Shown one piece after another: positions 37,904 through 55,204 of a stretch of 64,000 nt of DNA (position 1 is its first letter; each line of letters opens with the position of its first letter). The DNA comes from Nitrospirales bacterium (lineage in GTDB: Bacteria > Nitrospirota > Nitrospiria > Nitrospirales > UBA8639): contig OY729426.1 in NCBI GenBank assembly GCA_963422365.1, forward strand, positions 1,563,380-1,627,379. The letters are read 5' to 3'. The position numbers and the translations under genes were made by a program. The notes beneath the pieces are model-generated. The model searched no databases and was not told where the DNA came from. It was given only the letters and a program-made list of their open reading frames with translations.

Positions 37904-39073
37904 TTATGCTCCCCTGAATTTGAGAGCATTGGGAATGTTCGTTCGCATGGCGCGAACCGCCGGGAGCAATCCGCCAAGGGTTGCCATGAAGACGCCGAAG
38001 AGGACGCCCCATAGTGCGATCCGAGGAGTCAGGACAAAACCATAGGCCAATTCCGACATGGTGGCGTAGTTAATGGTTGACAGAGAAGTGAATTGAAGCA
38101 ATGACGCCAGCGCGATGCCCAGACCGGAGCCAAGGAGCCCGATCAAGACCGACTCAAACACAAAGAGGTTGAAAATCCTCCTTCGCGTGAATCCCATCGC
38201 ACGCAGGGTGGCGATCTCGGTGGTGCGATGCGCGACCGCGCCGTACATCGTGATCATGGCGCCGAGGCTTGCCCCCGCGCTGAAGAGCCCAGTCAGCATA
38301 AGCCCCATGGTTCGGATAAAATTCGAGAGACCGCCGGATCGTGATTCATAATAAGCGGCTTCTTTGGTAATGGCTATCTGCAGGCGGGGATCTTGGTCGA
38401 TACGGGATTGGAGCGTGGGAAATAGCGAGGGGTCGCGCGGTCGAAAAATGGCTGAAGAATAATACGTGCGTCCGAACGCGTCCATGAATCGATCGGCATC
38501 CCCCCACATTTCGGATTCAAAGCCGCTTCCGTCCGCTTCAAAGGTTCCGACCACGGTCCAGTTCTGTCTGCCGAACCGAAGCGTTTGGCCCAGATCCGCA
38601 TTTTTAAAGCGTCGAGCGATCTCTTTGCCCGTCACCACTTCATTCGTTCCGGGACGCCACATGCGGCCCTTCACAAGCTTCACTTGAGACCGCACGTGAA
38701 ACGAGTCTGCCGATCCCCCACGGAGGGTCACGTTGCCCGCGGTGTCTGTGCCCCGTTTTACTAAGCTGATGAGCACCACGATTTCAGGCGAGAACAGCGA
38801 GTGGCCGTTCTGTTGAGCAATTTCCGGAAACGTTCGTAAGATGGCCGTCTGTTCCCGATAGAGTCCGCTTCCGATCTCGGAGATGGCTCCTTTCCGAAGG
38901 ACCAAGACATTGTCCATGGAGCCGGTATTGACTAAGGTGTGCTCGACGCCGTGTGCCAACATTAAGACTCCCACAAAGATGAACACGACCAGGCCTACTC
39001 CCATGATCGTCAACAGGTTGGTGGTTCGTCGAGCGAGCAGGTGACGGAAATTGTATGAGAAAAAAATCTGCAT
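37904..39073 (-). CDS. ABC transporter permease, FtsX/MacB-type
   Basis: N-terminal TM, a large periplasmic domain and a C-terminal FtsX 3-TM bundle (EIATLRAMGFTRRRIFNLFVFES). Confidence 0.85.
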   Translation of the reverse strand: MQIFFSYNFRHLLARRTTNLLTIMGVGLVVFIFVGVLMLAHGVEHTLVNTGSMDNVLVLRKGAISEIGSGLYREQTAILRTFPEIAQQNGHSLFSPEIVVLISLVKRGTDTAGNVTLRGGSADSFHVRSQVKLVKGRMWRPGTNEVVTGKEIARRFKNADLGQTLRFGRQNWTVVGTFEADGSGFESEMWGDADRFMDAFGRTYYSSAIFRPRDPSLFPTLQSRIDQDPRLQIAITKEAAYYESRSGGLSNFIRTMGLMLTGLFSAGASLGAMITMYGAVAHRTTEIATLRAMGFTRRRIFNLFVFESVLIGLLGSGLGIALASLLQFTSLSTINYATMSELAYGFVLTPRIALWGVLFGVFMATLGGLLPAVRAMRTNIPNALKFRGA

Positions 39074-39084
39074 GGATCTGAGCC

Positions 39085-39245
39085 GTCAATTCCTATCCAG
39101 AAGACATAAGGGCGGCCCCCCCCGCTAACCTTGTCCCCGACATTTGTTATTGGGGAAACTGCGAGGATGACAATTGGCTGTTTCTGTCACTCCCGATATT
39201 TTTAGTCGGGAATCCAGTCTCCGCATCTCATGCGGCCTAGAAAAG
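39085..39245. repeat. Mosaic repeat units inserted between the two permease genes of one operon
   Basis: cttgtccccgacatttgttattggggaaactgcg; tcactcccgatatttttagtcgggaatccagt; ccgcatctcatgcggcctag (39221..39240). Confidence 0.8.
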
Positions 39246-39295
39246 GTGCGATCCCTCGAACCCTTGGGGGATCGTGCGGTTAGAACGGGCATCAT

Positions 39296-40462
39296 TTATC
39301 CCATATGACGGAGTTCATTCCGAATCCGGCTGCGGAGGCAGAGCACAAACGGGATGACTGCCCCAACCAGCCCAATACTTACACTGAGGACCACCGCCAG
39401 CATCGGCAACTGAGCAGGTAGCTCAAACACCGTGAAAAACCCTCCCAAATTGCTGGTGAGGAACATGCCGAACCATCTGCTCGCGGGATACAGAAGGGCG
39501 ACCCCAAGGATTCCCCCGAAAAGAGAGAGACATACCGATTCGCCGAAAATCAAGAGACTGAGATGAGGAGCCCGAAACCCCAACGTCTTCAAGATCCCGT
39601 ATTCATGATGCCGTTCGCGAACGCTCATTGCCATGGCATTGGCGACAACCAAGATACTGATGCCCAGGATGAGGAAAGACATGATTTCGACTACGCGAAT
39701 GATAGCGCCGGACATGGTCACCATGTTGGCTTGAAACGCCTGTTCTGTTTCCGTTCGGGTTTCCGCTATGGAATTGGTAAAGGCTTGATCGATCTCCGTG
39801 GAGATTTGTGCTGCCTGTTCGGGGTTGGCCATCTGAACCACAAACCAGCCCACGGTCCCTGCGCGAGCCGGATCGTCGAGTCGCCGGCGTTCGTCCACCG
39901 CGCTCCAGTGAAGATACATGCTCCCTTCAGACGCGGTCGGCGTCGTCCTTGTGTAGATTCCTCGTATCGTGAATTCCCAATCGCCCGGATAGAGACTGCC
40001 TTGCAGGCGGACAATGTCACCAATGTCCCAGCCGAGTTTGTCGGCGAGCTCTCGCCCCACGATGCAAGCCCGGCGATCCCGGAGAAAGGCGTTTCGTTGT
40101 GCCGGCGGCAAGTGAATTTCAGGATGGAGCCCTAAATACGAGGTCGACTCTACGGCATATCGAGGAAAAAATGCCTTGCCGTCCTTCCATCGTCCACCAA
40201 ACCAGTTGGCGTAGGAAACCCCGCTCACGCCGGGAATTGCGGCAATGCGTTGTTGATAGGCCACCGGTAGTTGAAAGGAAATGGAAACGGCATGCCGGGT
40301 TCTCAAGCGATCGGGCTGCGATCCCAGCGATCCCGCATACCAGGCCGTGACCGTTGTGCGAAGGAGACCAAAGGCCAGAATGATAATACACATGGTCAGG
40401 ATGGTTAAAGTCGCCCGGAGCGGATGACGGAGCACGTTACGGAAGGTGTAGCGAAGCAACAT
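39296..40462 (-). CDS. ABC transporter permease, FtsX/MacB-type (second copy)
   Basis: Same architecture as above (EYGILKTLGFRAPHLSLLIFGES). Confidence 0.85.
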   Translation of the reverse strand: MLLRYTFRNVLRHPLRATLTILTMCIIILAFGLLRTTVTAWYAGSLGSQPDRLRTRHAVSISFQLPVAYQQRIAAIPGVSGVSYANWFGGRWKDGKAFFPRYAVESTSYLGLHPEIHLPPAQRNAFLRDRRACIVGRELADKLGWDIGDIVRLQGSLYPGDWEFTIRGIYTRTTPTASEGSMYLHWSAVDERRRLDDPARAGTVGWFVVQMANPEQAAQISTEIDQAFTNSIAETRTETEQAFQANMVTMSGAIIRVVEIMSFLILGISILVVANAMAMSVRERHHEYGILKTLGFRAPHLSLLIFGESVCLSLFGGILGVALLYPASRWFGMFLTSNLGGFFTVFELPAQLPMLAVVLSVSIGLVGAVIPFVLCLRSRIRNELRHMG

Positions 40463-41137
40463 TTATTCCAATCTTCCTTTCTGCAGCCTGCAGATAGTGG
40501 CGGCGCGTTGCGCGGCTTCGAGGTCATGGGTGACCAACACGATCGTCTTGCCTTGTTCCGTGTTCAGTCGTTGGAGCAGGGTCATGATCTCGTCTGCGGC
40601 GTCACTGTCCAAGTTGCCCGTCGGCTCATCCGCCAGGAGAATCGCGGGATCCATCACGATCGCTCGCGCAATCGCCACGCGCTGCTCCTGGCCTCCCGAG
40701 AGTTGACGCGGATAATGCGTCATTCGGTCGGCCAATCCCACAAGCCGCAAGGCGGTCGACACGTGTTTCGCGCGTTTCGCACGGGACAGGGACGTCAGCA
40801 GCAACGGCAACTCCACGTTTTCAGCCGCCGTCAGAACCGGAATCAAATTGTAGAACTGGAAGATGAATCCGATTGTTTTGGCCCGCCATTTGGCAAGTTG
40901 ATGGTCGGACAGTTGGTTCACATTGGTCTGATTGATGGACACGTGTCCGCGCACGGGACGGTCGAAGCCGGCCATCAGATTCAAAATGGTGGTTTTCCCC
41001 GACCCGGACGGGCCCAGCAAGGCCACGAAACTCGACGGTGCGATGGCGAGCGTCAGTTGCCTCAGGACGGGTATTTCGATGTCGTCTCGGAAATAGGAAT
41101 GCGAAACTTTTTGAATGTCGATGATGGATGAGGTCAT
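40463..41137 (-). CDS. ABC transporter ATP-binding protein (MacB/LolD-like)
   Basis: Walker A GPSGSGKTT, signature LSGGQEQRVAIARA, Walker B LLADEPTGNLD. Confidence 0.9.
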   Translation of the reverse strand: MTSSIIDIQKVSHSYFRDDIEIPVLRQLTLAIAPSSFVALLGPSGSGKTTILNLMAGFDRPVRGHVSINQTNVNQLSDHQLAKWRAKTIGFIFQFYNLIPVLTAAENVELPLLLTSLSRAKRAKHVSTALRLVGLADRMTHYPRQLSGGQEQRVAIARAIVMDPAILLADEPTGNLDSDAADEIMTLLQRLNTEQGKTIVLVTHDLEAAQRAATICRLQKGRLE

Positions 41138-41143
41138 GGGGCT

Positions 41144-42412
41144 TCACTCCTGAGCACGTTCTTGAATGAGACTGCCTGTGACGAGATCGTCGGAGGGATT
41201 GATGATAACGGTATTGCCTTGGACCACGTTCCCTCGAATGGGAATGAGCCCGTTACGAGGCGCTCCGGTTTCAACGGGTCTTTCCGACACCACGTTGTCC
41301 TTGACCAGCAGGACCGTCGTTTGTCCGTTTCGGGTTACGATGGCGTCGGGCGAAACCCCCAAGGTGTCAGGCGGTGCTTCTTCTTGGGAAGCCGACGAGG
41401 ATTGACTCAAAAAAGTCACCGTGGCGCTCATGTCCGGAAAGACCTTTTCGTCCAGATCGTCAAAGCGAATTTTGACGGGAATGGTGGCTTTGGTCCGATC
41501 GGCCGTCGGGACAATCTGACTCACGCTGCCGTGATAGATATGGTCCGGAACGGCTTCCAAGCTAATATGGGCCGGTTGGTCGAGGCCCACCGAGTTGAGA
41601 AAGGACTCCGAGACTTCGGCTTCAACTTGCAATGTGCGTAAATCGGCGATCGCGGCGACCGAGCCTCGGGACTGAGAGGCGCCAGCCATCGGCGCCACGA
41701 TTTCTCCGACTTCGGCGAATTTTTTCATGACGGTTCCATCAAAAGGGGCGCGAATCAAGGTGTTTTCAACGTCTACCTTCACCGCTTGAATTTCCGCTTG
41801 GGCCAGCTTCACCGCCGAGTATGATGACCGCACCGATGCCCGCGCTCGACGCAACCGGGCTTCTGCGGTGTCGAGTTCTGACAGAGTGACAAGGCCCTTG
41901 TCCCATAAGACCTTGATTCGTCGGTAATGGAGCGTCGCTTCTCGTAACTCGGGCCGTGCATTGGCCAAGGCGGCCTTCGCGACGTCTAATCGGGCGTGCG
42001 TTTGTAAGAGCCTTGCCTTGATGTCGGCCTGCTCCAGGGTCGCAATAATTTCTCCTTTGGTAACCCGATCTCCCACGTCAATGCGAACAGCCGTCAAACG
42101 GCCCGTGCCTTTTGACGCAACGGATGCCTGCCGCTGGGCGACCACATATCCGGTTGCGGTCAAGAGCCCTCGAGCGGGTGACTGAAAGAAACGCTGTACG
42201 CGGGTGACTTGAACGCGAGTGGCGTGCAATGAAAGCCCACTCGTCATGTAGGAGCCGATCGAGAAAAGAATCACGGCGGCTCCGATCACGAACGCAAAGC
42301 TTTTCCCGAATCTCTTCGGCCTGTGAGTGGAATTTTTCTCTATGATGAGGTCGTCTAAATCTGGAGCGTCTTTACCCGAGGGAGAAGAGAAATTCTCGCT
42401 TTTCTCTTTCAT
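41144..42412 (-). CDS. Efflux periplasmic adaptor (HlyD/MacA membrane-fusion family)
   Basis: N-terminal TM, lipoyl/barrel-sandwich segments and a coiled-coil hairpin (LDVAKAALANARPELREATLHYRR...). Confidence 0.85.
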   Translation of the reverse strand: MKEKSENFSSPSGKDAPDLDDLIIEKNSTHRPKRFGKSFAFVIGAAVILFSIGSYMTSGLSLHATRVQVTRVQRFFQSPARGLLTATGYVVAQRQASVASKGTGRLTAVRIDVGDRVTKGEIIATLEQADIKARLLQTHARLDVAKAALANARPELREATLHYRRIKVLWDKGLVTLSELDTAEARLRRARASVRSSYSAVKLAQAEIQAVKVDVENTLIRAPFDGTVMKKFAEVGEIVAPMAGASQSRGSVAAIADLRTLQVEAEVSESFLNSVGLDQPAHISLEAVPDHIYHGSVSQIVPTADRTKATIPVKIRFDDLDEKVFPDMSATVTFLSQSSSASQEEAPPDTLGVSPDAIVTRNGQTTVLLVKDNVVSERPVETGAPRNGLIPIRGNVVQGNTVIINPSDDLVTGSLIQERAQE

Positions 42413-42999
42413 GCATGCGTTCCTGTCTGATAACCGGAATGGAGAGCATCTCGAAAGAACCGTGGTGATAATCCCGTCGCCTTTTTGAAAAAATGGCTGA
42501 AAGAAAACTGGTCTTGGAATCCGAGGGCCTGGGCGATTTCGGTCAAATTCTGTTCGGAATTTTCTAAAAGGCGTTTGGCCGTTTGAAGGCGAAGCCGTTT
42601 CAAATACGCAGAGAAGGGTTCTCCCATGTGTAGAATGAAGAAAACAGAACAGTACTTTTCCGAATATCCAAAATGTTCTGATAAATCCTTGAGGGTCAAG
42701 CCCTGGTGAAGATGGGTCACGATGAATTCGTGGAGCCGTTCGGACAGGGTGGGGTTCGATGTCGCGAGGGTGTCGGAATCGGGTGACAGTGCCCGTAAAA
42801 CGAATTCCTTCGCGATTTGTTGCTTGTCATGGTTTTGTCGACCTTGATAAAAGCGCCTAGCCCAATTGGCGGTATACGCAAACAATTCGCGGAGTAAGGC
42901 ATGCTCATCGGCGGCACTGGATGGTGACAAGGGACCCTTGTCCTTATCGAGGACGATGACTGAGGCAGAATGGAGATGTTCTTTTTCGTCCGTATTCAT
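42409..42999 (-). CDS. AraC-family transcriptional regulator
   Basis: C-terminal double HTH (LTLKDLSEHFGYSEKYCSVFF...NLTEIAQALGFQDQFSFSHFFKKATGLSPRFFR). Confidence 0.85.
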   Translation of the reverse strand: MNTDEKEHLHSASVIVLDKDKGPLSPSSAADEHALLRELFAYTANWARRFYQGRQNHDKQQIAKEFVLRALSPDSDTLATSNPTLSERLHEFIVTHLHQGLTLKDLSEHFGYSEKYCSVFFILHMGEPFSAYLKRLRLQTAKRLLENSEQNLTEIAQALGFQDQFSFSHFFKKATGLSPRFFRDALHSGYQTGTHA

Positions 43000-43195: not shown

Positions 43196-43708
43196 TTACT
43201 CAGGGTCTCCTCGCATCATCAAGGGATGATTAAAAATCCACATTTCGTACATGGGAATCGCAAACATGATCAAAAACGTAATCGTCATGAGAACGTCGCC
43301 GGTCAACAGGGTCAATACGAAGAGGGGCGACACATAGGTGATGAGCCACGGCGACACGAGATCCAACGTCACGCCCACGAAGGCAACCCAGGTGGTCATC
43401 ACTTTTACGAGAGGGCTGGCCATGGTCAGATACAACACATGAACCATAATCAGAAACACGACCGGTAGCGTGAATAAGTGAAAATGTGTGGTTTCGGCCA
43501 ATTGCCCGAACGACATGGGCTCGCCGAAATTATCATCAGACCCGCGATAGTGTTGGGCAATGCCTTTGGGTGTCAGGTCGGTCATGCTGTGTGCCCACAC
43601 AAAGGTGAAGACAAATCCCGCGAACATGAAGAGAAGGAACCATGTGTACACCAATCGTATGTGGCGGTCAGTGTCACGTAGCCGAAACCGAGCATTGAAA
43701 TTCCGCAT
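43196..43708 (-). CDS. 4-TM integral membrane protein with membrane-embedded histidines (function unknown)
   Basis: 170 aa with four hydrophobic spans. His residues lie at or near TM boundaries (VWAHS, TTHFHLF, MVHVLY). Last gene of the porin/FMN_bind operon. Confidence 0.65.
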   Translation of the reverse strand: MRNFNARFRLRDTDRHIRLVYTWFLLFMFAGFVFTFVWAHSMTDLTPKGIAQHYRGSDDNFGEPMSFGQLAETTHFHLFTLPVVFLIMVHVLYLTMASPLVKVMTTWVAFVGVTLDLVSPWLITYVSPLFVLTLLTGDVLMTITFLIMFAIPMYEMWIFNHPLMMRGDPE

Positions 43709-43842
43709 CGTAAAGCAATCTTCACCGAGAGCCTTGAGATCTTCTTCTGTCAGTCGAGCCCTGAGCCTTTTCCGTCTCCCTCATTTCCACGCACGCACAT
43801 CCTCGACCACGACCGGGGTTGGGAATTGAGAAGATCCCACGC

Positions 43843-44556
43843 TTAGAGCCCGAAGAGGGCTTCAAAGAATCCTTTTTCAGACTTGCCGGCGACCATGATG
43901 TTGGTACCGAGACCACGGGGCTTCAAATAGAATTCATTCACCAGCACGAGGACGCGTTTCACGCCGGCGCTTGCGGACCGCACGGACATCGTCGCCCCCG
44001 TGATATTAATGATATCTCGATTAATCCGTATCGGGTCCCCGATGGTTTTCCCCTGGTACTGATAATTGAACCGTTTGGTGGCGATCTCATTGCCTCGGGC
44101 TTCCCGATACACCAGCACTTCAAAGTTCGTGACTTCGCCGGCTGAATCAACGGCCACCATGTACGTAATGGGGCGATGCTTGCCGATGGTATTCTGGACG
44201 ATGGCATATCCGTCGATGTTTCCTTGGGTCTCCCCAATATAGACATCGAAGGAGGTTTCCGGAAATTCCCAGCCGATGGCTTGTTCGACCATGGTTTTTT
44301 GCTCTGCAGTCAAGATCAAGGTGTCCTTGCGAATCTTTTCGGAATCCGGAAACATGACGGTCGCAGCGTCTTCCTTCGTGAAATAAACTTCTAAATGTCC
44401 TAGTTCCTCAGGCGTGAGCCATCGATTGAGCTCATGATCCCAGATTTGTTCCTGCGGGGAGGCTTGGGCAAACCCCTGGGATAAAGGAATCCCTAGCAAG
44501 ACACTGCACATGGCAACAATTCCTGTAAGTCTTTGAATTAACTTAAAACCGTACAT
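43843..44556 (-). CDS. Secreted FMN-binding (FMN_bind, NosR/RnfG/NqrC-type) domain protein
   Basis: Signal peptide. The domain ends in ...INRDIINITGATMSVRSASAGV; the [S/T]GA[S/T] Thr is the known ApbE flavinylation site type. Confidence 0.75.
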   Translation of the reverse strand: MYGFKLIQRLTGIVAMCSVLLGIPLSQGFAQASPQEQIWDHELNRWLTPEELGHLEVYFTKEDAATVMFPDSEKIRKDTLILTAEQKTMVEQAIGWEFPETSFDVYIGETQGNIDGYAIVQNTIGKHRPITYMVAVDSAGEVTNFEVLVYREARGNEIATKRFNYQYQGKTIGDPIRINRDIINITGATMSVRSASAGVKRVLVLVNEFYLKPRGLGTNIMVAGKSEKGFFEALFGL

Positions 44557-44993
44557 CCCTTATCCTTTAGTTGTTTGGTAATCCGTTGGGCCAGACGCCG
44601 CTCCTCCTCGGCGATGGGGGGAATGCGTCTCCAGCCGGATTGCGACCTCGCACCCATGGGAGAAAAAAACTCCCGGACTTGCCGAACGGAGATCCTGATC
44701 GGCTGCCGGGCTGCTTCGACATTCAGAAAAAATCGGGCGCGTTCCTCGTTGGACTCGCGTGAAAACACCCCGGCTTTTCGCTTGGAAGCAAAACCCACCC
44801 AATCGGTCGTAATCACCCCCTTGTCCTTATCCGTTTGACTCAACGCGAATTCATCCACGCTCGCGAGGGCCACGGACCATGCCTGGTCATAGGAACAGCC
44901 GGCGTTCACGGTGCTGGGTGCGCCGCCGGAAAGAGCCGCGCACCCCACCGTGAAAACAACCAAGAGCACAGAAAGAACGATATGCTTACCCAT
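44538..44993 (-). CDS. Lipoprotein of unknown function
   Basis: MGKHIVLSVLLVVFTVGC lipobox. The longer track ORF (to 45080) reads through a repeat element, so the ATG at 44993 is preferred. Confidence 0.6.
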   Translation of the reverse strand: MGKHIVLSVLLVVFTVGCAALSGGAPSTVNAGCSYDQAWSVALASVDEFALSQTDKDKGVITTDWVGFASKRKAGVFSRESNEERARFFLNVEAARQPIRISVRQVREFFSPMGARSQSGWRRIPPIAEEERRLAQRITKQLKDKGCTVLS

Positions 44994-45002
44994 AAATTCC
45001 TT

Positions 45003-45049
45003 CCCCCATCTCCCCTGGAGGGAGAGGGCCGGGGTGAGGGGATCTTCGC
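45003..45049. repeat. ctcccc..gggagagg..ggggtgagggg-type repeat unit inside an operon spacer
   Basis: ccatctcccctggagggagagggccggggtgaggggatcttcgcc. Related copies lie at about 46705..46760, 47160..47200 and 49720..49790. Confidence 0.75.
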
Positions 45050-46588
45050 CTAGAAGTACGTCGACATATTGAATTGCCACCCGTCGCGATTCGTGGCCGG
45101 GTCATTATTTTCCCTCTCATGTCTATTAAACGTATAGGCTATCTTGAGGACCGAATCTTCTATCGGCCGGAAATTGAGCCCCAGGGTCAACCGGTCGATG
45201 GCATTCGGGTTGCTGTCATCATCGGTGTTGGTATCCACCTGTCCCCAACGAACGATGCCCGTAAACGTCGAGTCCTGGCCGAAGTAGCCGGGCAAGGCCC
45301 TGGTGAGCCCATCCGGCATAAAGTGGTAATTCAATTGCACGTAATAGCCGAACATATTTTCGGGGACGACGTAACTTCTTCCGAAAGATACATCCTGAAG
45401 GCGCCTCGTTGCTCCGGTAGTATCCTGAGTGAATATTCGACTCGCAGGACACTGACTTTCATCTTCCAGGGTACAAATCGACTGTGTCCCGCTCCCTTCG
45501 GCGTTGGCCCAGGCGGCTTCACCCTGGATGTCAAAGGGCCCTCGTTGCAGGTTCCCGTCGATGGCGAGCAGGGTCAGGTAATGGTCCTCAGGGTCGTCCT
45601 CCTTGTTCCATTGGCCGTGGTGAATGGACCCGGCCACCTCGACTCCCAACACAGGGCTGAACGAGATACGGCTGACAATCGCCTTGTTTCGGTTGTTATC
45701 CTTTTGAAAACTTCCGCGAGCAGATCGCAACCCGCTTCCTTCTTCGACCGAAAACTGGCCGTCATCGCCCACAAAACCATTCGTGAGGTAAAATTCGTAG
45801 TCGATCTTGGAAAGCGCGGTCGGATAGACCGTGCCGAAAAAGCCGATCCCGCTTTCGGCAAACGTGGAAGGCAGGATCAATCGGCTCACCATAGGCCGAA
45901 GCGGCAAATCGTTCAAGGGCGAGTCGTGGATGAGGTTGAACCGGCCCATGGGCATCAGGATGATGCCCCCACGCAGGTTGAATGCGTCGTTGAACCGGTA
46001 GTCCATGGTGGCGAATTCCATCTTGATGTCCCCGTCCCCTTGGTTGCCCTGGGGGCCGCCGTGTTCAACCTCGAGTTCAGCGGCCACGCTGAGCCGGTCC
46101 GTGACCTGGGAATAGAAGAACGGCACGAAGCGTTCCTGGTCGAAATCAATCCCGTTTCTACAATCCCGTGAGCCTCCTGAATTGTGTTTCGCGCCAGGCT
46201 TGCCGTCACAGTCCGAGATTGTGAAGTCGATGTACCCGCCGATGATGGTTTTCGGCGCCTTGACAAAAGGTCTGGCGTAGATGGTCCGTCCACCCTGCAG
46301 GCCAGCACCACCCGAGAAGTCCGTGCCGTATCGGATTGACTGTTTTGTGGTGTCGCCCATGGCCGGCGCGGAAGTCCCCATTTTGCGCGGGGGCTGCGGT
46401 GCCGCTATGGCCGGCCCTCCCGCTGCAGGTGGCTGCTGCTGTTGTCGCTGTTGTTTTGACCACTCTTCAAACATTTTTCGTATCTGTTCCATTTGGGCAG
46501 GAGTAAATTCTTCTCCCTCGGCCCAGACAGTTGTGTGCGGCACAATCATGAGGACCATCATTGCCCCCGCGATCAATAATCGTCGCAT
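45050..46588 (-). CDS. Putative outer-membrane beta-barrel porin with an N-terminal coiled-coil/Pro-rich segment
   Basis: Signal peptide (MRRLLIAGAMMVLMIVPHTTVWA) and alternating beta-strand pattern. The C-terminus ...WQFNMSTYF ends in Phe. The frame is open to 46639. Confidence 0.65.
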   Translation of the reverse strand: MRRLLIAGAMMVLMIVPHTTVWAEGEEFTPAQMEQIRKMFEEWSKQQRQQQQPPAAGGPAIAAPQPPRKMGTSAPAMGDTTKQSIRYGTDFSGGAGLQGGRTIYARPFVKAPKTIIGGYIDFTISDCDGKPGAKHNSGGSRDCRNGIDFDQERFVPFFYSQVTDRLSVAAELEVEHGGPQGNQGDGDIKMEFATMDYRFNDAFNLRGGIILMPMGRFNLIHDSPLNDLPLRPMVSRLILPSTFAESGIGFFGTVYPTALSKIDYEFYLTNGFVGDDGQFSVEEGSGLRSARGSFQKDNNRNKAIVSRISFSPVLGVEVAGSIHHGQWNKEDDPEDHYLTLLAIDGNLQRGPFDIQGEAAWANAEGSGTQSICTLEDESQCPASRIFTQDTTGATRRLQDVSFGRSYVVPENMFGYYVQLNYHFMPDGLTRALPGYFGQDSTFTGIVRWGQVDTNTDDDSNPNAIDRLTLGLNFRPIEDSVLKIAYTFNRHERENNDPATNRDGWQFNMSTYF

Positions 46589-46699
46589 CGAACGACCTCC
46601 TTGTTGTTGGGGACTCTGCCTGTCCTCTGGATTACTCAAGGGGCTCTTGTGGCCCTCAAATTCCGTCTTGGTATTGTGTGTGTCTAGTGGATTTCCACC

Positions 46700-46760
46700 T
46701 CTCTAATATACCTCCCTCTCCCCCTGTGGGAGAGGGGCGGGGTAAGGGGGGGCTTACCCT
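46700..46760. repeat. ctcccc..gggagagg..gggtaagggg-type repeat unit
   Basis: cctccctctccccctgtgggagaggggcggggtaagggggg. Confidence 0.7.
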
Positions 46761-46764
46761 TTTG

Positions 46765-46971
46765 CTAATAGCCGCATGGCGCTAAGATGACTTCGGTTTC
46801 CTTGAGACTGTTATAGGAAATAGAGACGATGCGTTTACAGCGTTTACACTTGAGTTCAAGGTTCTCTCCGCGAATTTTTGCGATGAGTTGGCCGCATTCA
46901 CATCTCGCCTCTGTAGGCTTGAATTGCTTCCCTAGCCACCGAGTATTTCGATCAGCATCCATTGAATTCAA
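46765..46971 (-). CDS. Com-like zinc-ribbon mini-protein (paralogue 2)
   Basis: RCECGQLIAKIRGENLELKCKRCKRI shares its core with 25440..25640. Immediately upstream, on the same strand, of the porin operon. Confidence 0.6.
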   Translation of the reverse strand: MNSMDADRNTRWLGKQFKPTEARCECGQLIAKIRGENLELKCKRCKRIVSISYNSLKETEVILAPCGY

Positions 46972-47157
46972 AAGAAAGTTGTGGAGTTTCCAAAAAACCC
47001 CTAATCAAAAATTAGAATGATACTTGTTTTTATTTAAATTGATTTTGAGAACTTTTATTAACATAGAGCAAGTTTTGTGGCTTGTCAACTCTTTTCGGTC
47101 ATAAAGAAAAATATGACTGCAACCTGTTGATCGTATTGGTAAAATGAGATGATTGAC

Positions 47158-47260
47158 TCTTATCCGGCCTCTCCCTTGGAGGGAGAAGGCCGAAGAAGTG
47201 GATCCCCGCTAAAAACTGCGGGGAGGACAAGAGGATGTACTGCGGGGATGACAAGCAAGA
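47158..47260. repeat. Mosaic repeat units
   Basis: ggcctctcccttggagggagaaggcc; ggatccccgctaaaaactgcggggagg; ctgcggggatgac. Confidence 0.7.
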
Positions 47261-47360
47261 GCACGAAGGACAAGAAAGAACGGGAATGACCGCATGAATT
47301 CCGAAAGGCCATCAAAGCGTAGTTGTCTGGGGTCTCAGCCGTGAGGCCAACGCAGGGACT

Positions 47361-47940
47361 ATGATGGGCAGAAAAGTCTTGTTGGGGGTAGCGATTCTTT
47401 CTCTTGTTGTTGTGACGGGATGTGCGTCAGGGCTTTCGGATACTTCCCCGGACTCGATGACGAGTGAATTGGCGTTTGGCTATGTTCGAGTCGAGACCAA
47501 AGGGCCTCATCCGCGTGCGTTTCCAACCAAACTGAGGTTTTTCCCCCTGACCAATCAAGAGACGGGAGCACGATTTCGAGTTGACGTAAATTCCAAATCG
47601 GGCGTGTTTTCGATGAGATTACCGGCTGGACCGTATTCCATTGACCGAGTGCAATTTAATGCAGGCCCGTTTCAGGTTGAATCCCATGTGCAATTGACAT
47701 TTCAGGTACCCAAAAAGAAGTTGGCTAGGGGGCTGGCAATTTGAGGTCGAAACGCCGCGTACCGTTCGGCTTGTGCGGATTCGGATTCTTGAAGGGGATG
47801 CGGAGTTCTCAAAGAAATTTTCCGCGGATCTCGGATCAGAACGAGCACCCATTGAAACGACGTTGCCGAAACCTGAGACATTCGAAGCTCGTGTGTTTTC
47901 GGTTGCCCCTCAACCGAGAGTCAAATATTTCCGTCGTTGA
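47361..47940 (+). pseudogene. Lipoprotein of unknown function, frame broken at a G5 run
   Basis: Lipobox LVVVTGC. The frame ends at 47744, but the +1 frame continues sensibly (GWQFEVETPRTVRLVRIRILEGD...VKYFRR*) to 47940, 16 nt before the apbE ATG. The junction is at GGGGG 47728..47732. Confidence 0.55.
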
Positions 47941-47956
47941 TAAACTGCCTGACAAA

Positions 47957-48991
47957 ATGATGAAAGGGGTTCCTCTCGTCTTGGTTGGACTCTTGGGTGT
48001 CTCTTTCGCGTGTTGGCCGGGCTTCAGTCTGCAGGGATATGCTGCCGCACCCCATGTGGCCAAGCGCGGCCAAATGCATATGGGGACCCTGGTCTTTTTG
48101 ACGTCCGTCGCCCCAAATGAACGGGTGGCTCACGATGCCATTGAAAAAGGGTTTGCCGAAATTCACCGCCTGGAAGAAATCTTGAGTGCGTGGATTCCAG
48201 ACAGTGAACTCTCCCGCGTCAATGCCGCGGCAGGGAAAACGCCCATCAAGGTCAGTCCGGAAACCTTAGAGGTCTTGGCGCGCTCTGTAGACATGGCTCG
48301 AGTGACCGATGGGGGTTTCAACGTTGCTATTGGTCCGGCCGTAGAGGCCTGGAATATTAGTCGTGAAGGGCGTATCCCGACTCAGGAAGAATTAGAGGCC
48401 ACACGTCCTTCCATGGATCTTTCCGCTATTCATCTCAATAAGGACGCGGGCACCGTATATCTGGCTCGTTCCGGGATGCAGGTGGATATCGGCGGGATCG
48501 GCAAGGGATATGCCGCGGATTTCGTGGCCCGCGTGATGCGAGAAGCCGGTGCCTCAGCGGGCGTGGTCGCCATTTCCGGGGATATTACAACCTTTGGGCG
48601 CTTGCCCGATGGCCAACGTTTCGTGTTCGGCATCCAGCATCCTCGAAAAGAGAATGGGATCACGATCGGGCAACTTGAACTCGAAGATGAGGCCGTTTCC
48701 ACGGCTGGTGATTACCAACGATATTTTCTGAAGGACGGCATTCGTTATCATCACATTCTCGACCCTCAAACGCTTCAGCCCGCGCGTCTCTCTCAGAGTG
48801 TGACCATCGTAGCCCAAACCGGTGTGCTTGCCGATGGGCTCGATACGGGAATTTTTGTCATGGGTCCGGAAAAAGGGATGGCTTTGATTGAACGCCTGCC
48901 CGGAGTCGAAGGCGTGATTGTCGGTGCGGATGGAACCGTGTCCGTCTCTTCGGGATTACAAGACCGGTTGCAGATGAGTCCAGGGCCGTAA
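47957..48991 (+). CDS. apbE: FAD:protein FMN transferase ApbE
   Basis: Signal sequence, then HRLEEILSAWIPDSELSRVN, FNVAIGP, DIGGIGKGYAAD, STAGDYQRYF...YHHILDP, ADGLDTG. The track ORF starts at 47741; the ATG at 47957 (MMKGVPLVLVGLLG) is preferred. Confidence 0.9.
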   Translation: MMKGVPLVLVGLLGVSFACWPGFSLQGYAAAPHVAKRGQMHMGTLVFLTSVAPNERVAHDAIEKGFAEIHRLEEILSAWIPDSELSRVNAAAGKTPIKVSPETLEVLARSVDMARVTDGGFNVAIGPAVEAWNISREGRIPTQEELEATRPSMDLSAIHLNKDAGTVYLARSGMQVDIGGIGKGYAADFVARVMREAGASAGVVAISGDITTFGRLPDGQRFVFGIQHPRKENGITIGQLELEDEAVSTAGDYQRYFLKDGIRYHHILDPQTLQPARLSQSVTIVAQTGVLADGLDTGIFVMGPEKGMALIERLPGVEGVIVGADGTVSVSSGLQDRLQMSPGP

Positions 48992-49084: not shown

Positions 49085-49135
49085 GGCAATCCAATCTGGA
49101 TTCCCGCTAGAAACTGCGGGAATGACCATTTCAAC
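49085..49135. repeat. Palindromic repeat unit (attcccgc..gcgggaat type)
   Basis: ctggattcccgctagaaactgcgggaatgacc. Confidence 0.7.
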
Positions 49136-49836: not shown

Positions 49837-50595
49837 TTATTGTTCGTCGTCTTCGTTTTTCTTATGCATCATATTGCCGCCATGGGCCTTCATGCGTTCG
49901 TGAATGTTATCCATCCGAGATCGTTGCTCGGGGGACAACACGGCTTTGGCGTCCCGCTTGGCTTTGATTGAAGCCATGTAGAGCTTCGTCTTCAAGGCAT
50001 GCATGGCGTTGAATTGCACTTCAATGTCGGAGAGACTCGCTTTCTCGTCTTTCAAGACTTCATGCAGGTCGACACTGGCTAATTGCACTTCGGCCTTCAT
50101 CTTGATCCGAGTCTTCTTATACGTCGTCTTGAGCGCATGAAGTTGCTGCTCTTGTTTGGCTGTTACACTCATTCCTTCTTTAAATTTCAATAGATGCGTA
50201 ATAAATTCCGTTGCGCCCTGATGGGTGCCGGGATGCGTAGAACCGAAACCATGGCGATCATGCCCTTTGGTGTGGTGGCTTCCGTATCCTGACGAATGCA
50301 TTGGATGATGCCCTTTGCCATGCCTCTTATGCATGCCATCATGTTGGGAAGACCGGGAATCGTCACCATGCCCCTGATACGAATCTTTTGGGTGATGGCC
50401 GCCGTCATGGGGCAATGCGCTCGATTTGCCGTGATTATGGAGGCTGGTGGCAGCATGAGCATCCTTCGAATCTTCATGCGGCAATCCATGCATAGAGTCA
50501 GGAGGGTCGGCAAAAGCTGGAACGGCAGACAGCAAAACGAGCATGGTCAACAGGGAAACAGGTGAAAACCAGGAAGGTGGTTCATGGATTCTCAT
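49837..50595 (-). CDS. Secreted His-rich protein with a Spy/CpxP/ZraP-like (LTxxQ) C-terminal domain
   Basis: AAGGAGG SD 8 nt before the ATG at 50595, and a signal peptide. There are 22 His in the 105 residues DPPDSMHG...EFITH. The helical domain carries VTAKQ and LSPEQ motifs. Confidence 0.75.
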   Translation of the reverse strand: MRIHEPPSWFSPVSLLTMLVLLSAVPAFADPPDSMHGLPHEDSKDAHAATSLHNHGKSSALPHDGGHHPKDSYQGHGDDSRSSQHDGMHKRHGKGHHPMHSSGYGSHHTKGHDRHGFGSTHPGTHQGATEFITHLLKFKEGMSVTAKQEQQLHALKTTYKKTRIKMKAEVQLASVDLHEVLKDEKASLSDIEVQFNAMHALKTKLYMASIKAKRDAKAVLSPEQRSRMDNIHERMKAHGGNMMHKKNEDDEQ

Positions 50596-50773
50596 GTTCG
50601 GTTCCTCCTTATGAATGGTTGGTCGATGGGATAAAGGGTTTGTCGGTGTGAAGTTTTCAACATTCGCGGGGTGTCCTCTGAGTGACGACAATAGGCCATT
50701 ATAAAACACTGAAGATAGTGATTGCGAATTGAGGCCTTGGCCTGTTTCAAGTGACGCCAAGAGAAAACGCGCA

Positions 50774-51841
50774 TCACGCATTTCTGTCAAAGAGTACCGT
50801 GTGGGTGGCAATGACGTTCAATCCCACCTTTGAGTCGAGAGGGAACAATTGGGTCGAGGCTTCGCTGCTATGAACGAGATCGCCGGAAGCCAGGCGGATT
50901 CCATAAATCGTCTCCGAGCCTCGAAACTGCCGGGATTCAACGGTTCCGTCTCCGTTATTGGTTCCACAAATTTGGATGTCATCCGGTCGAATCATGACCA
51001 CGACTTCAGGGCCGCCCGGGTAGCCGTTCGGCATCGGGAACGTGCCGAGTTGAGTCACGACGACAGAATCGTGGATGGTTCCAGGGATGAAGTCGGCGTG
51101 CCCCACAAACTCCGCGACAAAGGGCGAAACCGGAAGATGGTATATGGTTTCGGGTGCTGCGAATTGTTCGAGTTTCCCGTTATTCAAGACGGCCACGTCA
51201 TCAGCCATGGCAAAGGCTTCTTCATGATCATGCGTGACGAGAACGGCGGTGGTTTGAGTTTTTTTCAGCAAGTGCAGGAGTTCCATGCGCATGCGGCAAG
51301 TCGTATCCGGATCCAGGTTGCTGAACGGCTCGTCCAACAGGAGCAGCACCGGTTGGGGGGCAAGGGCGCGTGCCAATGCCGCGCGTTGCTGTTGGCCGCC
51401 CGACAGCGAATGAGGGTATCGTCGGGCAAGTTCTGAAAGCCCTGTGAGAGACAACATCTCATCAATTTGGCCCCTCCGGTTGTTTGCTGTTGCATGCGGC
51501 AACCCGAATCCCACGTTATCCTGTACGGTCAAGTGCGGAAAGAGCGCATAGTCCTGAAAAACCATGCCGACCCGCCGTTGTTCGGTGGGGACGTGCCGAT
51601 CAGTCGCCGAGACGATTGCCCCGTTCAGCCTGATTTCGCCGGCGGACACCGATTCAAATCCCGCGATAGCCCGAAGCGTTGTGGTCTTCCCGCATCCTGA
51701 CGGCCCTAACAGACAAATAATGTCACCTTTCTGAGCCGAAAAGGAAATCCCTTCTAGCGCTAAGGTGTCGGCTTCATACGAGCAGGCGACGTCTTTCATC
51801 TCGAGCACAATGGGCTTGTCGTCGGGAGGTCGTGGCATCAT
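50774..51841 (-). CDS. fbpC: Fe(3+)/polyamine-type ABC importer ATP-binding protein
   Basis: GPSGCGKTT, LSGGQQQRAALARA, LLLDEPFSNLD, plus a C-terminal TOBE-like domain. Confidence 0.85.
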   Translation of the reverse strand: MMPRPPDDKPIVLEMKDVACSYEADTLALEGISFSAQKGDIICLLGPSGCGKTTTLRAIAGFESVSAGEIRLNGAIVSATDRHVPTEQRRVGMVFQDYALFPHLTVQDNVGFGLPHATANNRRGQIDEMLSLTGLSELARRYPHSLSGGQQQRAALARALAPQPVLLLLDEPFSNLDPDTTCRMRMELLHLLKKTQTTAVLVTHDHEEAFAMADDVAVLNNGKLEQFAAPETIYHLPVSPFVAEFVGHADFIPGTIHDSVVVTQLGTFPMPNGYPGGPEVVVMIRPDDIQICGTNNGDGTVESRQFRGSETIYGIRLASGDLVHSSEASTQLFPLDSKVGLNVIATHTVLFDRNA

Positions 51842-51912: not shown

Positions 51913-53532
51913 TTACGTCGGTTGTCGATCTTTTTGCATCAATAATAACACGACCGGAATGGTAATGACCACGATCAGCAAGGCCGGAGGCGCAGCTAAT
52001 TGATACAGTTCCTCACTGGCTTCAAGCCAAATTCTGACGGCGAGTGTGTCGAATCCCACGGGACGCAGCAGGAGTGAAGCCGGCAATTCCTTCATACATT
52101 GGACAAACACGAAGATCCAGGCACTCAGAAACCCACCTCGCACCAACGGCAGGGTCACGTGAAAAAAGGTTCGAAGGGATCGAGCCCCAAGGCTTCGCGC
52201 CGCCTCTTCGAGATTCGGCGTGAGCTGCTGAAGGGTGGATTCCATGCCTTGCAGTGCTGCCGGGAGAAAATGGACCAAATAGGCCAGGAGCAAGACGAGC
52301 ACCGTGCCATACAGTTGTGGAATGGTGTGCGAGACCAAGACGAATACGGCGAGGGCGGCGACCGGCCCTGGAAGCACATAGCCGGTATACGCCCCTTGCA
52401 CACAAAAAGTACTGGTCCAGGTCTGATGTCGGCACGCTAAATAGGCGAGGGGAATTCCACAGATTACGGCCACCGTGGCCGTGATACTCGAGAGCGAGAC
52501 ACTGTTCCACACGTATCCGATGAATTCATGAGAAATCTCACCGGCAGACGCGGCTTTAACAGTCCATTGAATGAGCAGAAGCACCGGCAGGCCGAAGGCC
52601 GCTCCGAACACGAGAAGAAGATAGCCTGTAAACAGCAGAGCCGTGAAGGGAGGGCAAGGTTGAGGAACCGGTGTTCGATACCGGCCGGTGGTTTGGTAAA
52701 ACCGGCTCCGTTGTCGGAACCACCGTTCGCCGAACAGAAAGATAAATGCGCACGCGACTAATACCAGACTCAAACAGGCGGCTGCCGTGTTGTCGAATCG
52801 TCCGGTCATTTGCTGGTACACGGCATAGGTAAAAGTTTGAAAGCGCAACAGCGAAACCGCGCCGAAATCAGAAGCGACGTAGAGAATCGCCAAGAAAAGT
52901 CCGGCGATCAGTGATGGGCGGATGAGCGGAAGCGACACTCGGAAGAACGTCGTCACTCGATTGGCTCCGGTCGTGCGGGCGACTTCTTCAAAGGAGATAT
53001 TAAAATTTTTGAGAGCCGATCGAGCCAACAGGTATACAAACGGAAACGTGTTCAACGCAAGAATGAGAACCGCGCCTGCAAAACTAAAAGGTGAAAACAA
53101 AAGAGAGTCTGTTCCGGCCATGGTTTGCCAGACGTGTTCCAGCGTGCCCCCGCGTTTTAACAGGTAGGTATAGGTATAGGCCAGAACGTAGGAGGGGATG
53201 GACAAGGGCAAAATCAGCAACCAATCCCATATTCGGGACCCGAGAAAGGTATAACGAGTCAGGATCCAAGCGAGTGAGACTCCCAGGGTCAGATTCACGA
53301 CTGCGACGCCAAGGGATAAGGAGAGCGTGTTGAAGAGTAATTCCGGGACCCGTGTAGCCCAGAGTCTTCGCCACACCGCCGGGTCTGCCGTTAGGGCCGA
53401 AAAGGCGATGTAGAACAACGGCAGCATGATCGCAAGGGCCAGGGAAAAGCCGAGCAGGACAAGCGGAGAAGGGAAACGAAAACGGAGCGATGACAGTGGG
53501 AGAAAAGGGTTAGCGGAGTCCAACGTCTTCAA
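51913..53532 (-). CDS. fbpB: Iron(III) ABC transporter permease (duplicated BPD-type permease)
   Basis: 539 aa with two tandem permease halves, each carrying the EAA-like loop (EEVARTTGAN... / EEAARSLGAR...). Confidence 0.85.
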   Translation of the reverse strand: MKTLDSANPFLPLSSLRFRFPSPLVLLGFSLALAIMLPLFYIAFSALTADPAVWRRLWATRVPELLFNTLSLSLGVAVVNLTLGVSLAWILTRYTFLGSRIWDWLLILPLSIPSYVLAYTYTYLLKRGGTLEHVWQTMAGTDSLLFSPFSFAGAVLILALNTFPFVYLLARSALKNFNISFEEVARTTGANRVTTFFRVSLPLIRPSLIAGLFLAILYVASDFGAVSLLRFQTFTYAVYQQMTGRFDNTAAACLSLVLVACAFIFLFGERWFRQRSRFYQTTGRYRTPVPQPCPPFTALLFTGYLLLVFGAAFGLPVLLLIQWTVKAASAGEISHEFIGYVWNSVSLSSITATVAVICGIPLAYLACRHQTWTSTFCVQGAYTGYVLPGPVAALAVFVLVSHTIPQLYGTVLVLLLAYLVHFLPAALQGMESTLQQLTPNLEEAARSLGARSLRTFFHVTLPLVRGGFLSAWIFVFVQCMKELPASLLLRPVGFDTLAVRIWLEASEELYQLAAPPALLIVVITIPVVLLLMQKDRQPT

Positions 53533-54550: not shown

Positions 54551-55035
54551 CGTCGTTCTATCCTTGCATTGGCGATCAAGTCTCGCCCGCAATTTTTGCA
54601 CTCACCCTTCGGCAATTGTATGGGGGTCCCATATAGTTCTAGTTTATGGGTATGAATCGTAAAACCGTTATTTCTCGCGACTTCTTCTTGTAATGCTTCA
54701 ATCTGGCAATTCTCGAATTCTATGATTTTATCACACACCGTGCAGATGAGATGATCATGGTGCCCTTTGTGGGCCACATTATCGAACTGAGTCTGATTGC
54801 CGAAATGTTGCTCTTGCGCGAGGCCGGTCTCGCACAGAAGTTTAAGCGTGCGGTAGACCGTGGCAAGGCCGATATGGGGGTTCTTCTTGGAGAGCAGCCG
54901 ATACATCTGTTCGGCCGTTACGTGTTCCATCTTCAAAAAGGTCTTGAGAATGTTCTCACGTTGGCGGGTCAGCTTAAGGCTGTTTTTAGAAAGGTGTTGC
55001 TTGAGAATCTCGAGTTCTTTGATGGGCTTTGCCAT
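54547..55035 (-). CDS. fur: Fur-family metalloregulator
   Basis: LKLTRQRENILKTF...VTAEQMY...IGLATVYRTLKLL...HHDHLICTVCDKIIEF and a C-terminal CKNC. The ATG at 55035 (MAKPIKEL) is preferred. Confidence 0.85.
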   Translation of the reverse strand: MAKPIKELEILKQHLSKNSLKLTRQRENILKTFLKMEHVTAEQMYRLLSKKNPHIGLATVYRTLKLLCETGLAQEQHFGNQTQFDNVAHKGHHDHLICTVCDKIIEFENCQIEALQEEVARNNGFTIHTHKLELYGTPIQLPKGECKNCGRDLIANARIERR

Positions 55036-55066
55036 ACCAATAAATTCCCATGTGTATAGAAAAGCT

Positions 55067-55095
55067 ATTAAACCGAAATATGGTCGAAGGGTCAA
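55067..55095 (-). promoter_or_regulatory. Candidate sigma-70 promoter of the fur-fbpABC operon
   Basis: Minus strand: TTGACC, 17 nt, TTTAAT, about 30 nt upstream of the fur ATG. Confidence 0.3.
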
Positions 55096-55204
55096 GCCAG
55101 CAGTGAACGTCATTGAGAGTGATGACAGTTTTTTTTAGCAAGAGACTCTCTTGCCCGGACCGTATTTGCAGCCATGCGTATCTCTCGCTACCTTAAAAGC
55201 TGTC

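Follow-up and report, generated by a model that had tools for sequence, protein, structure and literature searches.

How would a bacterium use an outer-membrane porin, a secreted flavoprotein and a small inner-membrane protein whose genes stand together, within a few kilobases of the gene for an enzyme that attaches flavin mononucleotide (FMN) to proteins? The question is posed by a stretch of 64,000 nucleotides (the window, meaning this whole stretch) from the genome of a nitrite oxidiser of the Nitrospirales (GenBank assembly GCA_963422365.1, contig OY729426.1, positions 1,563,380 to 1,627,379), which holds these genes, together with two lipoprotein genes, at its positions 43,196 to 48,991. 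A first reading of the bare sequence (hereafter the original prediction) had taken them for a candidate flavin-based redox module spanning the cell envelope; its observation is confirmed here, and its interpretation is partly supported. The genes are a real, conserved functional unit, which is set among genes for iron uptake and whose probable task is to pass electrons to iron at the envelope of the cell. Our fuller reading, on which we are evenly divided, is that of a self-contained flavin-based envelope redox module with four core parts, which would be regulated by metal, most likely by iron through Fur.

Gene content and conservation of the module

The locus consists of an operon on the minus strand and, divergent upstream of it on the plus strand, lipoprotein 2 and apbE (TM4 is our working name for the 170-amino-acid protein with four transmembrane helices, 4-TM; aa, amino acids):

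46765-46971, minus strand: Zn-ribbon protein, 68 aa, first gene of the operon (from the open reading frame listing)
45050-46588, minus strand: outer-membrane beta-barrel porin, 512 aa, with signal peptide MRRLL...TVWA and C-terminus ...FNMSTYF
44538-44993, minus strand: lipoprotein 1, 151 aa, start MGKHIVLSVLLVVFTVGC, lipobox FTVGC
43843-44556, minus strand: secreted RnfG/NqrC-like FMN_bind protein, 237 aa (PF04205)
43196-43708, minus strand: TM4, inner-membrane 4-TM protein, 170 aa (PF27139, Aq_1264_TM)
47361-47940, plus strand: lipoprotein 2, lipobox VVTGC, frameshifted (located by tblastn of orthologues)
47957-48991, plus strand: ApbE, flavin adenine dinucleotide (FAD):protein FMN transferase (PF02424)

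Every gene of the original prediction is present in the open reading frame listing, and so is the gap of 16 nucleotides (nt) between lipoprotein 2 (stop codon 47938-47940) and apbE (ATG at 47957). Its operon of four genes also stands, with an addition at the head that it had missed, namely the Zn-ribbon gene, which lies upstream of the porin gene in 52 of 53 Nitrospirales loci. These loci come from a survey in which one genome per species was scanned, yielding 70 loci, essentially all of them from Nitrospirales; the parts were counted by tblastn with the window proteins, in those loci with enough flanking sequence. FMN_bind was found in 63 of 63 loci and the porin in 54 of 54, ApbE in 49 of 50 and every time divergent from the operon, lipoprotein 1 in 60 of 63, lipoprotein 2 in 39 of 52, and the ATPase of the neighbouring ATP-binding cassette (ABC) importer, FbpC, in 41 of 48, with gene order and strand identical throughout. 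TM4 is the best-conserved part across this group, at 67-91% identity. Lack of co-occurrence in relatives, which the original prediction had named as grounds for refutation, is decisively contradicted by these counts.

The unit extends beyond the Nitrospirales. An exhaustive search for the TM4 family (E<=1e-3) gathered 422 clusters at 50% identity, and a metagenome scan with a narrow alignment (A6) gave six loci; outside the Nitrospirales the core set was found at TM4 members of 23-40% identity, in the following forms (L numbers denote loci, P numbers TM4-family proteins and OMP an outer-membrane protein):

Porin, FMN_bind, TM4: L075, L083, L086, L087, L088
Porin, FMN_bind, TM4, ApbE: L078, L080
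Porin, FMN_bind-ApbE fusion, TM4: L071, L074 and one JGI contig
TM4, OMP, FMN_bind, ApbE: L076
TM4, OMP, two FMN_bind genes, with no ApbE in the stretch covered: L077
FMN_bind and TM4 only: L079, L082, L084, L085

Present in 49-63 species-level Nitrospirales genomes and about 15 distant loci, the arrangement is far beyond chance. The parts correspond in sequence as well: the FMN_bind proteins are mutually homologous across lineages (1e-14 to 1e-36), with residues 56-207 of the window protein showing homology to its counterpart in every distant module, and the window porin shares homology with those of distant modules (1e-17 to 1e-28), while the OMP of L076 matches the porin profile with an hhalign probability of 83%. 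ApbE is moreover fused to FMN_bind in L071 and L074, where the fusion gene lies directly upstream of TM4 and overlaps it, and, with an extra transmembrane segment, to TM4 in P0209 and P0253. Because the same set recurs in distant lineages and the lipoproteins are lineage-specific, save for a homologue of lipoprotein 1 between porin and FMN_bind in L087 (37% identity, 1.8e-27), the core consists of porin, FMN_bind, Aq_1264_TM and ApbE. The two lipoproteins, which the original prediction had listed with the module, are lineage-restricted accessories.

The accessory genes have features of their own. Lipoprotein 1 has invariant residues C32 and C146 together with Trp residues; it gave weak matches only, to DUF3576 and NlpB, in Pfam, and its profile found no relative among Protein Data Bank (PDB) sequences. 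Lipoprotein 2, for which Pfam and the PDB profile search likewise returned no relative, is about 195 aa long and uninterrupted in its orthologues; in the window it is frameshifted at a run of five G near 47727-47733, tblastn by orthologues running in frame 3 from 47361 to 47726 and in frame 1 from 47731 to 47937, which reflects either an assembly indel or a pseudogene. The Zn-ribbon protein has no signal peptide and is cytoplasmic; its Cys core, EARCxCGQL[IV]AK...E[LV]KCKRCKR (C-x-C ... C-x-x-C), is conserved in 54 sequences, and we take it to be reminiscent of the Com-type translational regulators of phage Mu. L075 encodes a Zn-ribbon of 49 aa after TM4 that looks unrelated to the 68-aa protein.

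Some further observations concern the DNA around these genes. A GC-rich hairpin (CCCTCTCCC..GGGAGAGGG) with a REP-like look occurs in three copies in the intergenic gaps of the cluster (45003-45041, 46711-46749 and 47164-47202), where it yields spurious open reading frame extensions such as ...PALSLQGRWG, and an additional repeat pair lies at 47199-47228 and 49097-49126. Elsewhere, in the anaerobe-like lineage of L076 and L077, positions 5383-6977 of L076 and the flanks of both loci carry NusG_II, Hpre_diP_synt_I/CbiQ, Rrf2 and a hemerythrin/DUF438/DUF1858/Fer4 set, hinting at other regulation or at a link with flavin trafficking in that lineage.

Predicted flavin attachment and the inner-membrane protein TM4

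ApbE matches PF02424 at 266.6 bits (3.4e-79) over profile positions 1-265 of 266, with 7esa_A as its nearest solved structure (1.4e-48); read from the 47957 start it carries a lipoprotein-type signal, LLGVSFAC, and its gene lies 3.4 kb from that of the FMN_bind protein. The latter matches PF04205 at 33.2 bits (cut-off 22) over residues 125-203 and RnfG models at 5.5e-7, its nearest solved structure being RnfG (9eri_G, 2.4e-5), and by inspection its N-terminus is a hydrophobic signal ending in GFA, followed by QA. It contains the motif NRDIINITGATMSVRS, in which the predicted target, T189 (codon 43990-43992), sits in the context D-I-I-N-I-T-G-A-T-M-S.

Motif statistics over 83 FMN_bind partner proteins gave D(-8)-I-x-N-I-[S/T](-3)-G-A-T(0)-[MILV]-S, with G-A-T invariant in all 83. 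Position -3 is Ser or Thr in 75 of the 83 and Val or Ala in ApbE-fused forms. The canonical flavinylation motif is D-x-x-[S/T]-G-A-[S/T], and replacing its Asp with Ala has minor effects only, according to a review (PMC12052999). The Thr of TGAT that the original prediction had named as the flavin acceptor is present; the Asp is not kept at the canonical -6 and stands at -8 in 79 of the 83 partners. Since the substrate is fused to ApbE in some lineages, these FMN_bind proteins are likely to be flavinylated, and we infer covalent attachment of FMN at T189 of the window protein. Two other candidate sites were rejected: QDTTGATRR in the porin, which sits in a non-conserved loop of alignment A3, and THQGAT in the His-rich protein described below, which lacks the motif context.

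The fusions also bear on what TM4 does. Besides those of TM4 itself with ApbE, its gene overlaps or abuts apbE in L071, L074, L078 and L080, and to our knowledge the route by which FAD reaches periplasmic ApbE is generally unresolved; TM4 might then be an accessory of flavinylation that supplies FAD to the periplasm or holds substrate and ApbE at the membrane. However, TM4 always adjoins FMN_bind and often not ApbE (L075, L079, L082, L083-L088), its family is missing from most bacteria that contain ApbE, a 4-TM protein of 170 aa is small for a dinucleotide exporter, and homologues of TM4 that bear c-type haem, discussed below, have no flavin genes nearby. We consider this role very unlikely.

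TM4 matched no characterised family; the original prediction, which had not recognised it, had counted a match to a well-characterised unrelated one as grounds for refutation. Precomputed annotation places all its homologues, from 90% down to 23% identity, in PF27139 (Aq_1264_TM), a family without described function, and it is through these homologues, indirectly, that we assign TM4 to it; aq_1264 is nowhere mentioned in the literature searched. TM4 itself matched nothing in the Pfam and NCBIfam libraries searched, in which the PF27139 model is not included, its family profile matched no PDB sequence, and a Foldseek search of its model against the PDB gave E = 3.1 at best, with a TM-score below 0.42. 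Among 56 family members compared with Pfam at E<=1 there was no haem, quinone or ferric-reductase family, nor, with TM4 included, any match to NapH-like, MsrQ-like, PepSY-like, DsbD, NqrB/RnfD-like or DUF4405 proteins. At the sensitivity of these searches, the idea that TM4 is one of the known proteins of the cytochrome b, PepSY or DUF4405 kind was rejected.

Across 97 family representatives, over which all TM4 conservation was computed, G56, H75 and H77 are invariant and Y54, W121, W157, K102 and E72 strongly conserved. The AlphaFold2 model, which is confident (predicted local distance difference test, pLDDT, 93.2), consists of four long helices and a short one on the periplasmic side; if the N-terminus, being positively charged, is taken as inside, the model places the HxH pair (H75, codon 43484-43486; H77, codon 43478-43480) at the periplasmic start of transmembrane helix 2 (TM2), amid other conserved periplasmic residues. 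The original prediction had drawn attention to three His-bearing motifs (VWAHS, TTHFHLF and MVHVLY) as possible ligands of an electron conduit: all three are present, with invariance confined to H75 and H77, while H90 (codon 43439-43441), deep within TM2, is kept in 70 of the 97 representatives (72%) and the His of VWAHS (H40) in 10. No conserved His was found on helices other than TM2 in the same representatives. PepSY, MsrQ and DUF4405 proteins have four central His forming two b-haem sites (PMC10979944); TM4 does not have this set, sites formed across a homodimer being possible. Because H90 is lost in 28% of representatives and only the two periplasmic His are invariant, a general two-haem wire through the membrane appears unlikely.

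An invariant HxH beside a conserved E72 at the periplasmic entrance resembles a metal site, and together with the iron context described below and the existence of minimal modules without another transporter it suggests a different function, in which TM4 would be a permease for ferrous iron or another metal: the flavoprotein would reduce Fe(III) entering through the porin, with electrons from an unlinked donor, and Fe2+ would cross by way of HxH. The parts of TM4 that lie within the membrane, however, are hydrophobic and show little conservation, no polar path through them being preserved (neither D115 nor D138 is kept), and a 4-TM monomer is small for that role. We regard a permease as quite unlikely, the more so as the most distant homologues of TM4, one of them encoded next to Cyc2-like and cytochrome c genes, point to electrons rather than ions.

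These homologues, P0434 and P0240, belong to separate clusters at 50% identity, and both carry an insertion of 70 residues with a CXXCH motif in the periplasmic loop just before HxH; P0434 also shows a weak match to Haem_bd. The motif for haem is thus built into the loop that would face the FMN_bind partner in the flavin version, which provides good evidence, from sequence comparison, that the periplasmic face of TM4 handles electrons. In L081 (4860-7717) the gene for P0434 ends a row of two cytochrome c genes and a gene for an OMP of 408 aa; the cytochromes are monohaem and c-type, one of them cytochrome-579-like at 1e-8, and the N-terminus of the OMP, AIPAWARKY-NAD-CSMCH-FPVI-PRL, fits the signature of the porin-cytochrome Cyc2, which is AXPXFAR[Q/K][T/Y]...CXXCH...PXL followed by a porin of at least 365 residues (PMC8406198). 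The TM4 homologue of L081 may be an unrecognised inner-membrane partner of the Cyc2 pathway of iron oxidation. P0240 is encoded on a contig of 3.6 kb, between genes that by eye, from their translations, look URO-D-like and aconitase-like.

Porin, iron context and the proposed direction of electron flow

The window porin scores 14.5 bits against Porin_O_P (PF07396), below the cut-off of 20.9; 21 of 28 orthologues match at E<=0.1, the best at 2.8e-8, and the porin is therefore best read as a divergent member of the OprO/OprP-like type, although its profile found no match among PDB sequences, OprP included. The barrel of Cyc2 is reported to be OprP-like as well (PMC8406198), and with the CXXCH-bearing homologue of TM4 beside a Cyc2-signature gene this lends support to the idea, put forward in the original prediction, that the module is to flavin what porin-cytochrome conduits are to haem. 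A CXXCH motif is absent from the window porin, which so fails the Cyc2 signature itself, and a comparison of profiles gave the module porin no significant similarity to its Cyc2-like counterpart in L081. Module porins are about 410-555 aa long; their alignment contains many invariant charged residues, including an E-x-E-x-E strand (E171, E173 and E175), and the window porin has a Q-rich or coiled segment. In the porins of the window, L071, L075, L078 and L087, the N-terminal 30-70 residues after the signal peptide include a charged, heptad-like helical segment (for example RVRRLETQVEQLQQQLDVVLEEL), which by eye looks like a periplasmic coiled coil.

Around the module, the window has a metal-acquisition island that comprises a TonB-dependent receptor, TonB, an Fbp-like ABC importer, a regulator of the Fur family, a His-rich LTXXQ protein, and a MacB-type ABC set accompanied by an AraC regulator. 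The features that bear on regulation and iron, of which the genes are context rather than core and, apart from the receptor, were assigned with Pfam and NCBIfam, are:

47041-47088, minus strand: promoter-like site TTGACA-17-TATGTT (promoter scan), overlapping the degenerate operator copy GAGAAC-T-TTTATT
54547-55113, minus strand: Fur-family regulator
53510-54601, minus strand: Fbp-like ABC importer, substrate-binding protein
51913-53532, minus strand: Fbp-like ABC importer, fused double permease
50774-51841, minus strand: Fbp-like ABC importer, ATPase
49837-50811, minus strand: His-rich LTXXQ periplasmic protein
31794-33977: TonB-dependent receptor of haem/haemoglobin type, above the TIGR01785 cut-off

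The best NCBIfam matches of the Fbp-like importer are below cut-off, and its substrate assignment is insecure. Among distant modules, the gene immediately before the porin gene is of the Fur family in both L075 and L086, its product scoring best as Fur against Zur and PerR, yet below the equivalog cut-offs, and TonB with a TonB-dependent receptor lies close to L087.

A shared upstream palindrome adds a candidate operator. Within 1.17 Mb of sequence from Nitrospirales, TTGATAAC-N-GTTATCAA (TTTTAATAAC[C/T]GTTATCAAAA) is matched almost perfectly at 18 places, all of them 56-101 nt upstream of the Zn-ribbon gene (L002-L021, L053, L054 and L070), and related 7-1-7 palindromes precede the module in L078, L080, L075 and L071. 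A 7-1-7 layout is typical of Fur-family operators, and a regulator of this family may bind the palindrome, whose half-sites are non-classical, reading GATAAC where the classical form has GATAAT. The copy in the window (47047-47059) is degenerate, with 3 mismatches, and by itself at chance level; a search of the window for the classical Fur box (GATAATGATAATCATTATC) returned nothing better than chance, and neither did a search for clean 7-1-7 palindromes at the promoters of the window operon, FUR, TonB and the receptor. Taken together, the window's Fur-family gene, Fbp-like importer, TonB and haem receptor, the Fur genes of distant modules and the palindromes of relatives back a role in metal or iron, in line with the reductive metal uptake that the original prediction had raised.

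Other neighbours are recorded here as side observations. The His-rich LTXXQ protein (Spy/CpxP/ZraP-like) is encoded by the last gene of the Fbp-like ABC operon and found in most relatives at 37-72% identity; it is possibly a periplasmic metal chaperone. Directly downstream of TM4, at 37904-42999 on the minus strand, lies the MacB-type ABC set (two FtsX/MacB_PCD permeases, an ATPase and an HlyD adaptor) with its AraC regulator, which only about 12 of the 70 relatives share; similar sets accompany some iron-uptake clusters. Beside the Fur gene, on the plus strand, a gene of cation-diffusion-facilitator (CDF) type is split over three frames (55151-55411, 55392-55679 and 55663-56112, by eye from translations), which, after lipoprotein 2, points for the second time to indel errors in the assembly or to decaying genes.

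The substrate might also be something other than iron. Characterised members of Porin_O_P are anion-selective, and the porin orthologues match this family, so that the redox module might reduce an oxyanion or oxidant that reaches the periplasm through an OprP-like porin selective for anions, or might serve envelope repair; the neighbours of L076 and L077 are Rrf2, hemerythrin/DUF438 and Fe-S genes, not iron transporters, and L079 and L082 have GFA-family genes beside them. Fur-family genes or operators nonetheless recur across unrelated lineages, and in Nitrospirales the module lies inside an island of genes for iron acquisition. On balance, a substrate other than iron seems unlikely to us.

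Granted iron, the flow could in principle run the other way. Fe(II) entering through the porin would be oxidised by way of the flavoprotein; TM4 and the quinone pool would take up the electrons and the FbpA-like binding protein the resulting Fe(III), following the logic of oxidase-coupled uptake known from Fet3/Ftr1, EfeUOB and FtrABCD. An importer of the Fbp-like, Fe3+ type does adjoin the module in 41 of 48 Nitrospirales loci, the porin has its invariant acidic strand, and a homologue of TM4 stands in the neighbourhood of Cyc2, whose type belongs to Fe(II) oxidisers. But the potential of FMN bound to a protein is normally too low for the oxidation of Fe(II), the Fbp genes are absent from most distant modules, and the Nitrospirales concerned live aerobically in oxic water, which presumably contains little Fe(II). 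We hold oxidation to be the least probable of the readings considered, and the low potential expected of FMN is also why we favour ferric reduction for assimilation.

The reading that we prefer, a flavin-based module that delivers electrons to iron, can be set out as a sequence of steps. ApbE would attach FMN covalently at T189 of a soluble, periplasmic, RnfG-like protein. This flavoprotein would dock on the periplasmic face of TM4, formed by Y54, G56, E72, H75-x-H77 and P120-W121, and TM4 would couple it to an electron pool of the membrane, most likely quinol. The OprP-like porin would admit or present the substrate, or host the reaction at its periplasmic mouth, and the net activity would most likely be an assimilatory reduction of ferric iron, in the periplasm or at the mouth of the porin, that serves the neighbouring iron importers. 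What the sequences show directly is which genes and domains are there, how they are conserved and fused, and in what genomic context they lie; flavinylation, docking, the source of the electrons, their direction and iron as substrate are all steps that we infer.

Several findings weigh against this proposal. In the flavoprotein, the Asp of the motif is displaced, and the Ser or Thr at -3 gives way to Val or Ala in some lineages. TM4 lacks a known cofactor-binding signature, its two invariant His being on one helix and on the periplasmic side; H90 is missing in more than a quarter of representatives (the 28% given above), and the Foldseek search against the PDB found no fold relative among cytochrome b or quinol-binding subunits. 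The adjacent importer is of the Fe3+ kind, which needs no reduction, and its substrate call is weak; the window's own copy of the operator is degenerate. The Cyc2 neighbourhood, finally, occurs in one locus only, with none on the short contig of P0240.

A bolder form of the same proposal would make the module the flavin counterpart of Cyc2, in which a flavoprotein at the periplasmic mouth of an OprP-like porin exchanges electrons with iron inside the pore or at it. Aq_1264_TM would then be a new class of quinone-coupled redox protein of the inner membrane, acting through HxH (by a cofactor or by direct transfer from quinol to flavin or quinol to haem) and common to flavin and c-haem chains, and the module would be the main reductive iron route of marine Nitrospirales. 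We consider this extended version doubtful.

Known envelope redox systems and the biology of Nitrospirales

The closest known systems are those built on PepSY-like/FoxB, MsrQ-like and DUF4405/FezC proteins (Meheust et al. 2021, PMC8238504; Huang et al. 2024, PMC10979944), in which ApbE likewise goes together with an extracytosolic flavoprotein, its FMN covalently bound (as predicted for the module), and with a small protein of the inner membrane. An iron context is frequent among them, as here, and so is Fur control, which is likely for the module. The haem sites of FezC form only as a homodimer, a precedent relevant to TM4. In contrast to these systems, TM4 has no sequence similarity to their membrane proteins, no fold match in the PDB (FoxB included) and no set of four central His, and a dedicated porin belongs to the core. 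The module protein shares the FMN_bind fold family and the G-A-T site with RnfG and NqrC of Rnf and Na+-NQR; unlike them, it is secreted and soluble, with a cleavable signal in place of an N-terminal anchor and with its Asp at -8 instead of -6, and the module has no partner of the RnfD/NqrB type.

At the outer membrane, Cyc2 (Keffer et al. 2021, PMC8406198) would resemble the module in pairing an OprP-like porin of the 16-strand type with a single redox cofactor on the periplasmic side, whereas the cofactor of the module would be FMN on a separate polypeptide instead of a fused c haem, and the likely direction is reduction. With MtrCAB and other porin-cytochrome (Pcc) conduits the module has the concept in common, an outer-membrane barrel together with periplasmic and inner-membrane redox proteins; it differs in having no multihaem cytochromes, a small-porin barrel and not a 26-strand sheath, and no sign of a protein that threads the barrel. 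The iron systems FtrABCD, EfeUOB and P19/cFtr1 couple periplasmic redox steps to iron import, as the module would, and are Fur-regulated, and in some organisms they lie near MacB-type ABC genes; FTR1, P19, cupredoxin and DyP peroxidase were, by contrast, absent from scans of the window.

Membrane partners described so far for flavinylated proteins are NapH-like, MsrQ-like, PepSY-like, DsbD, Nqr/Rnf-like and DUF4405/FezC proteins, and neither of the two flavinylation surveys mentions porins, Nitrospira or a 4-TM partner (PMC8238504; PMC10979944). The module would add to these six kinds a seventh, unrelated membrane partner, Aq_1264_TM, and would be the first case of flavinylation with an outer-membrane porin as a core component. 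Flavinylation by ApbE is now viewed as a widespread means, alternative to cytochromes, of transferring electrons outside the cytosol. Flavinylated proteins have already been tied to the reduction and assimilation of iron (PMC8238504), and the literature searched contained nothing relevant that joins Nitrospira, ApbE and iron.

The module is conserved throughout the Nitrospirales, which are the main oxidisers of nitrite in oceans, in soils and in treatment plants, and whose key enzymes are rich in iron while their iron acquisition is poorly known. Beyond this group, the haem-bearing homologue of TM4 beside a Cyc2-like gene hints at flavin and cytochrome versions of one envelope architecture, which, if true, would link the assimilatory reduction of iron with dissimilatory iron redox chemistry.

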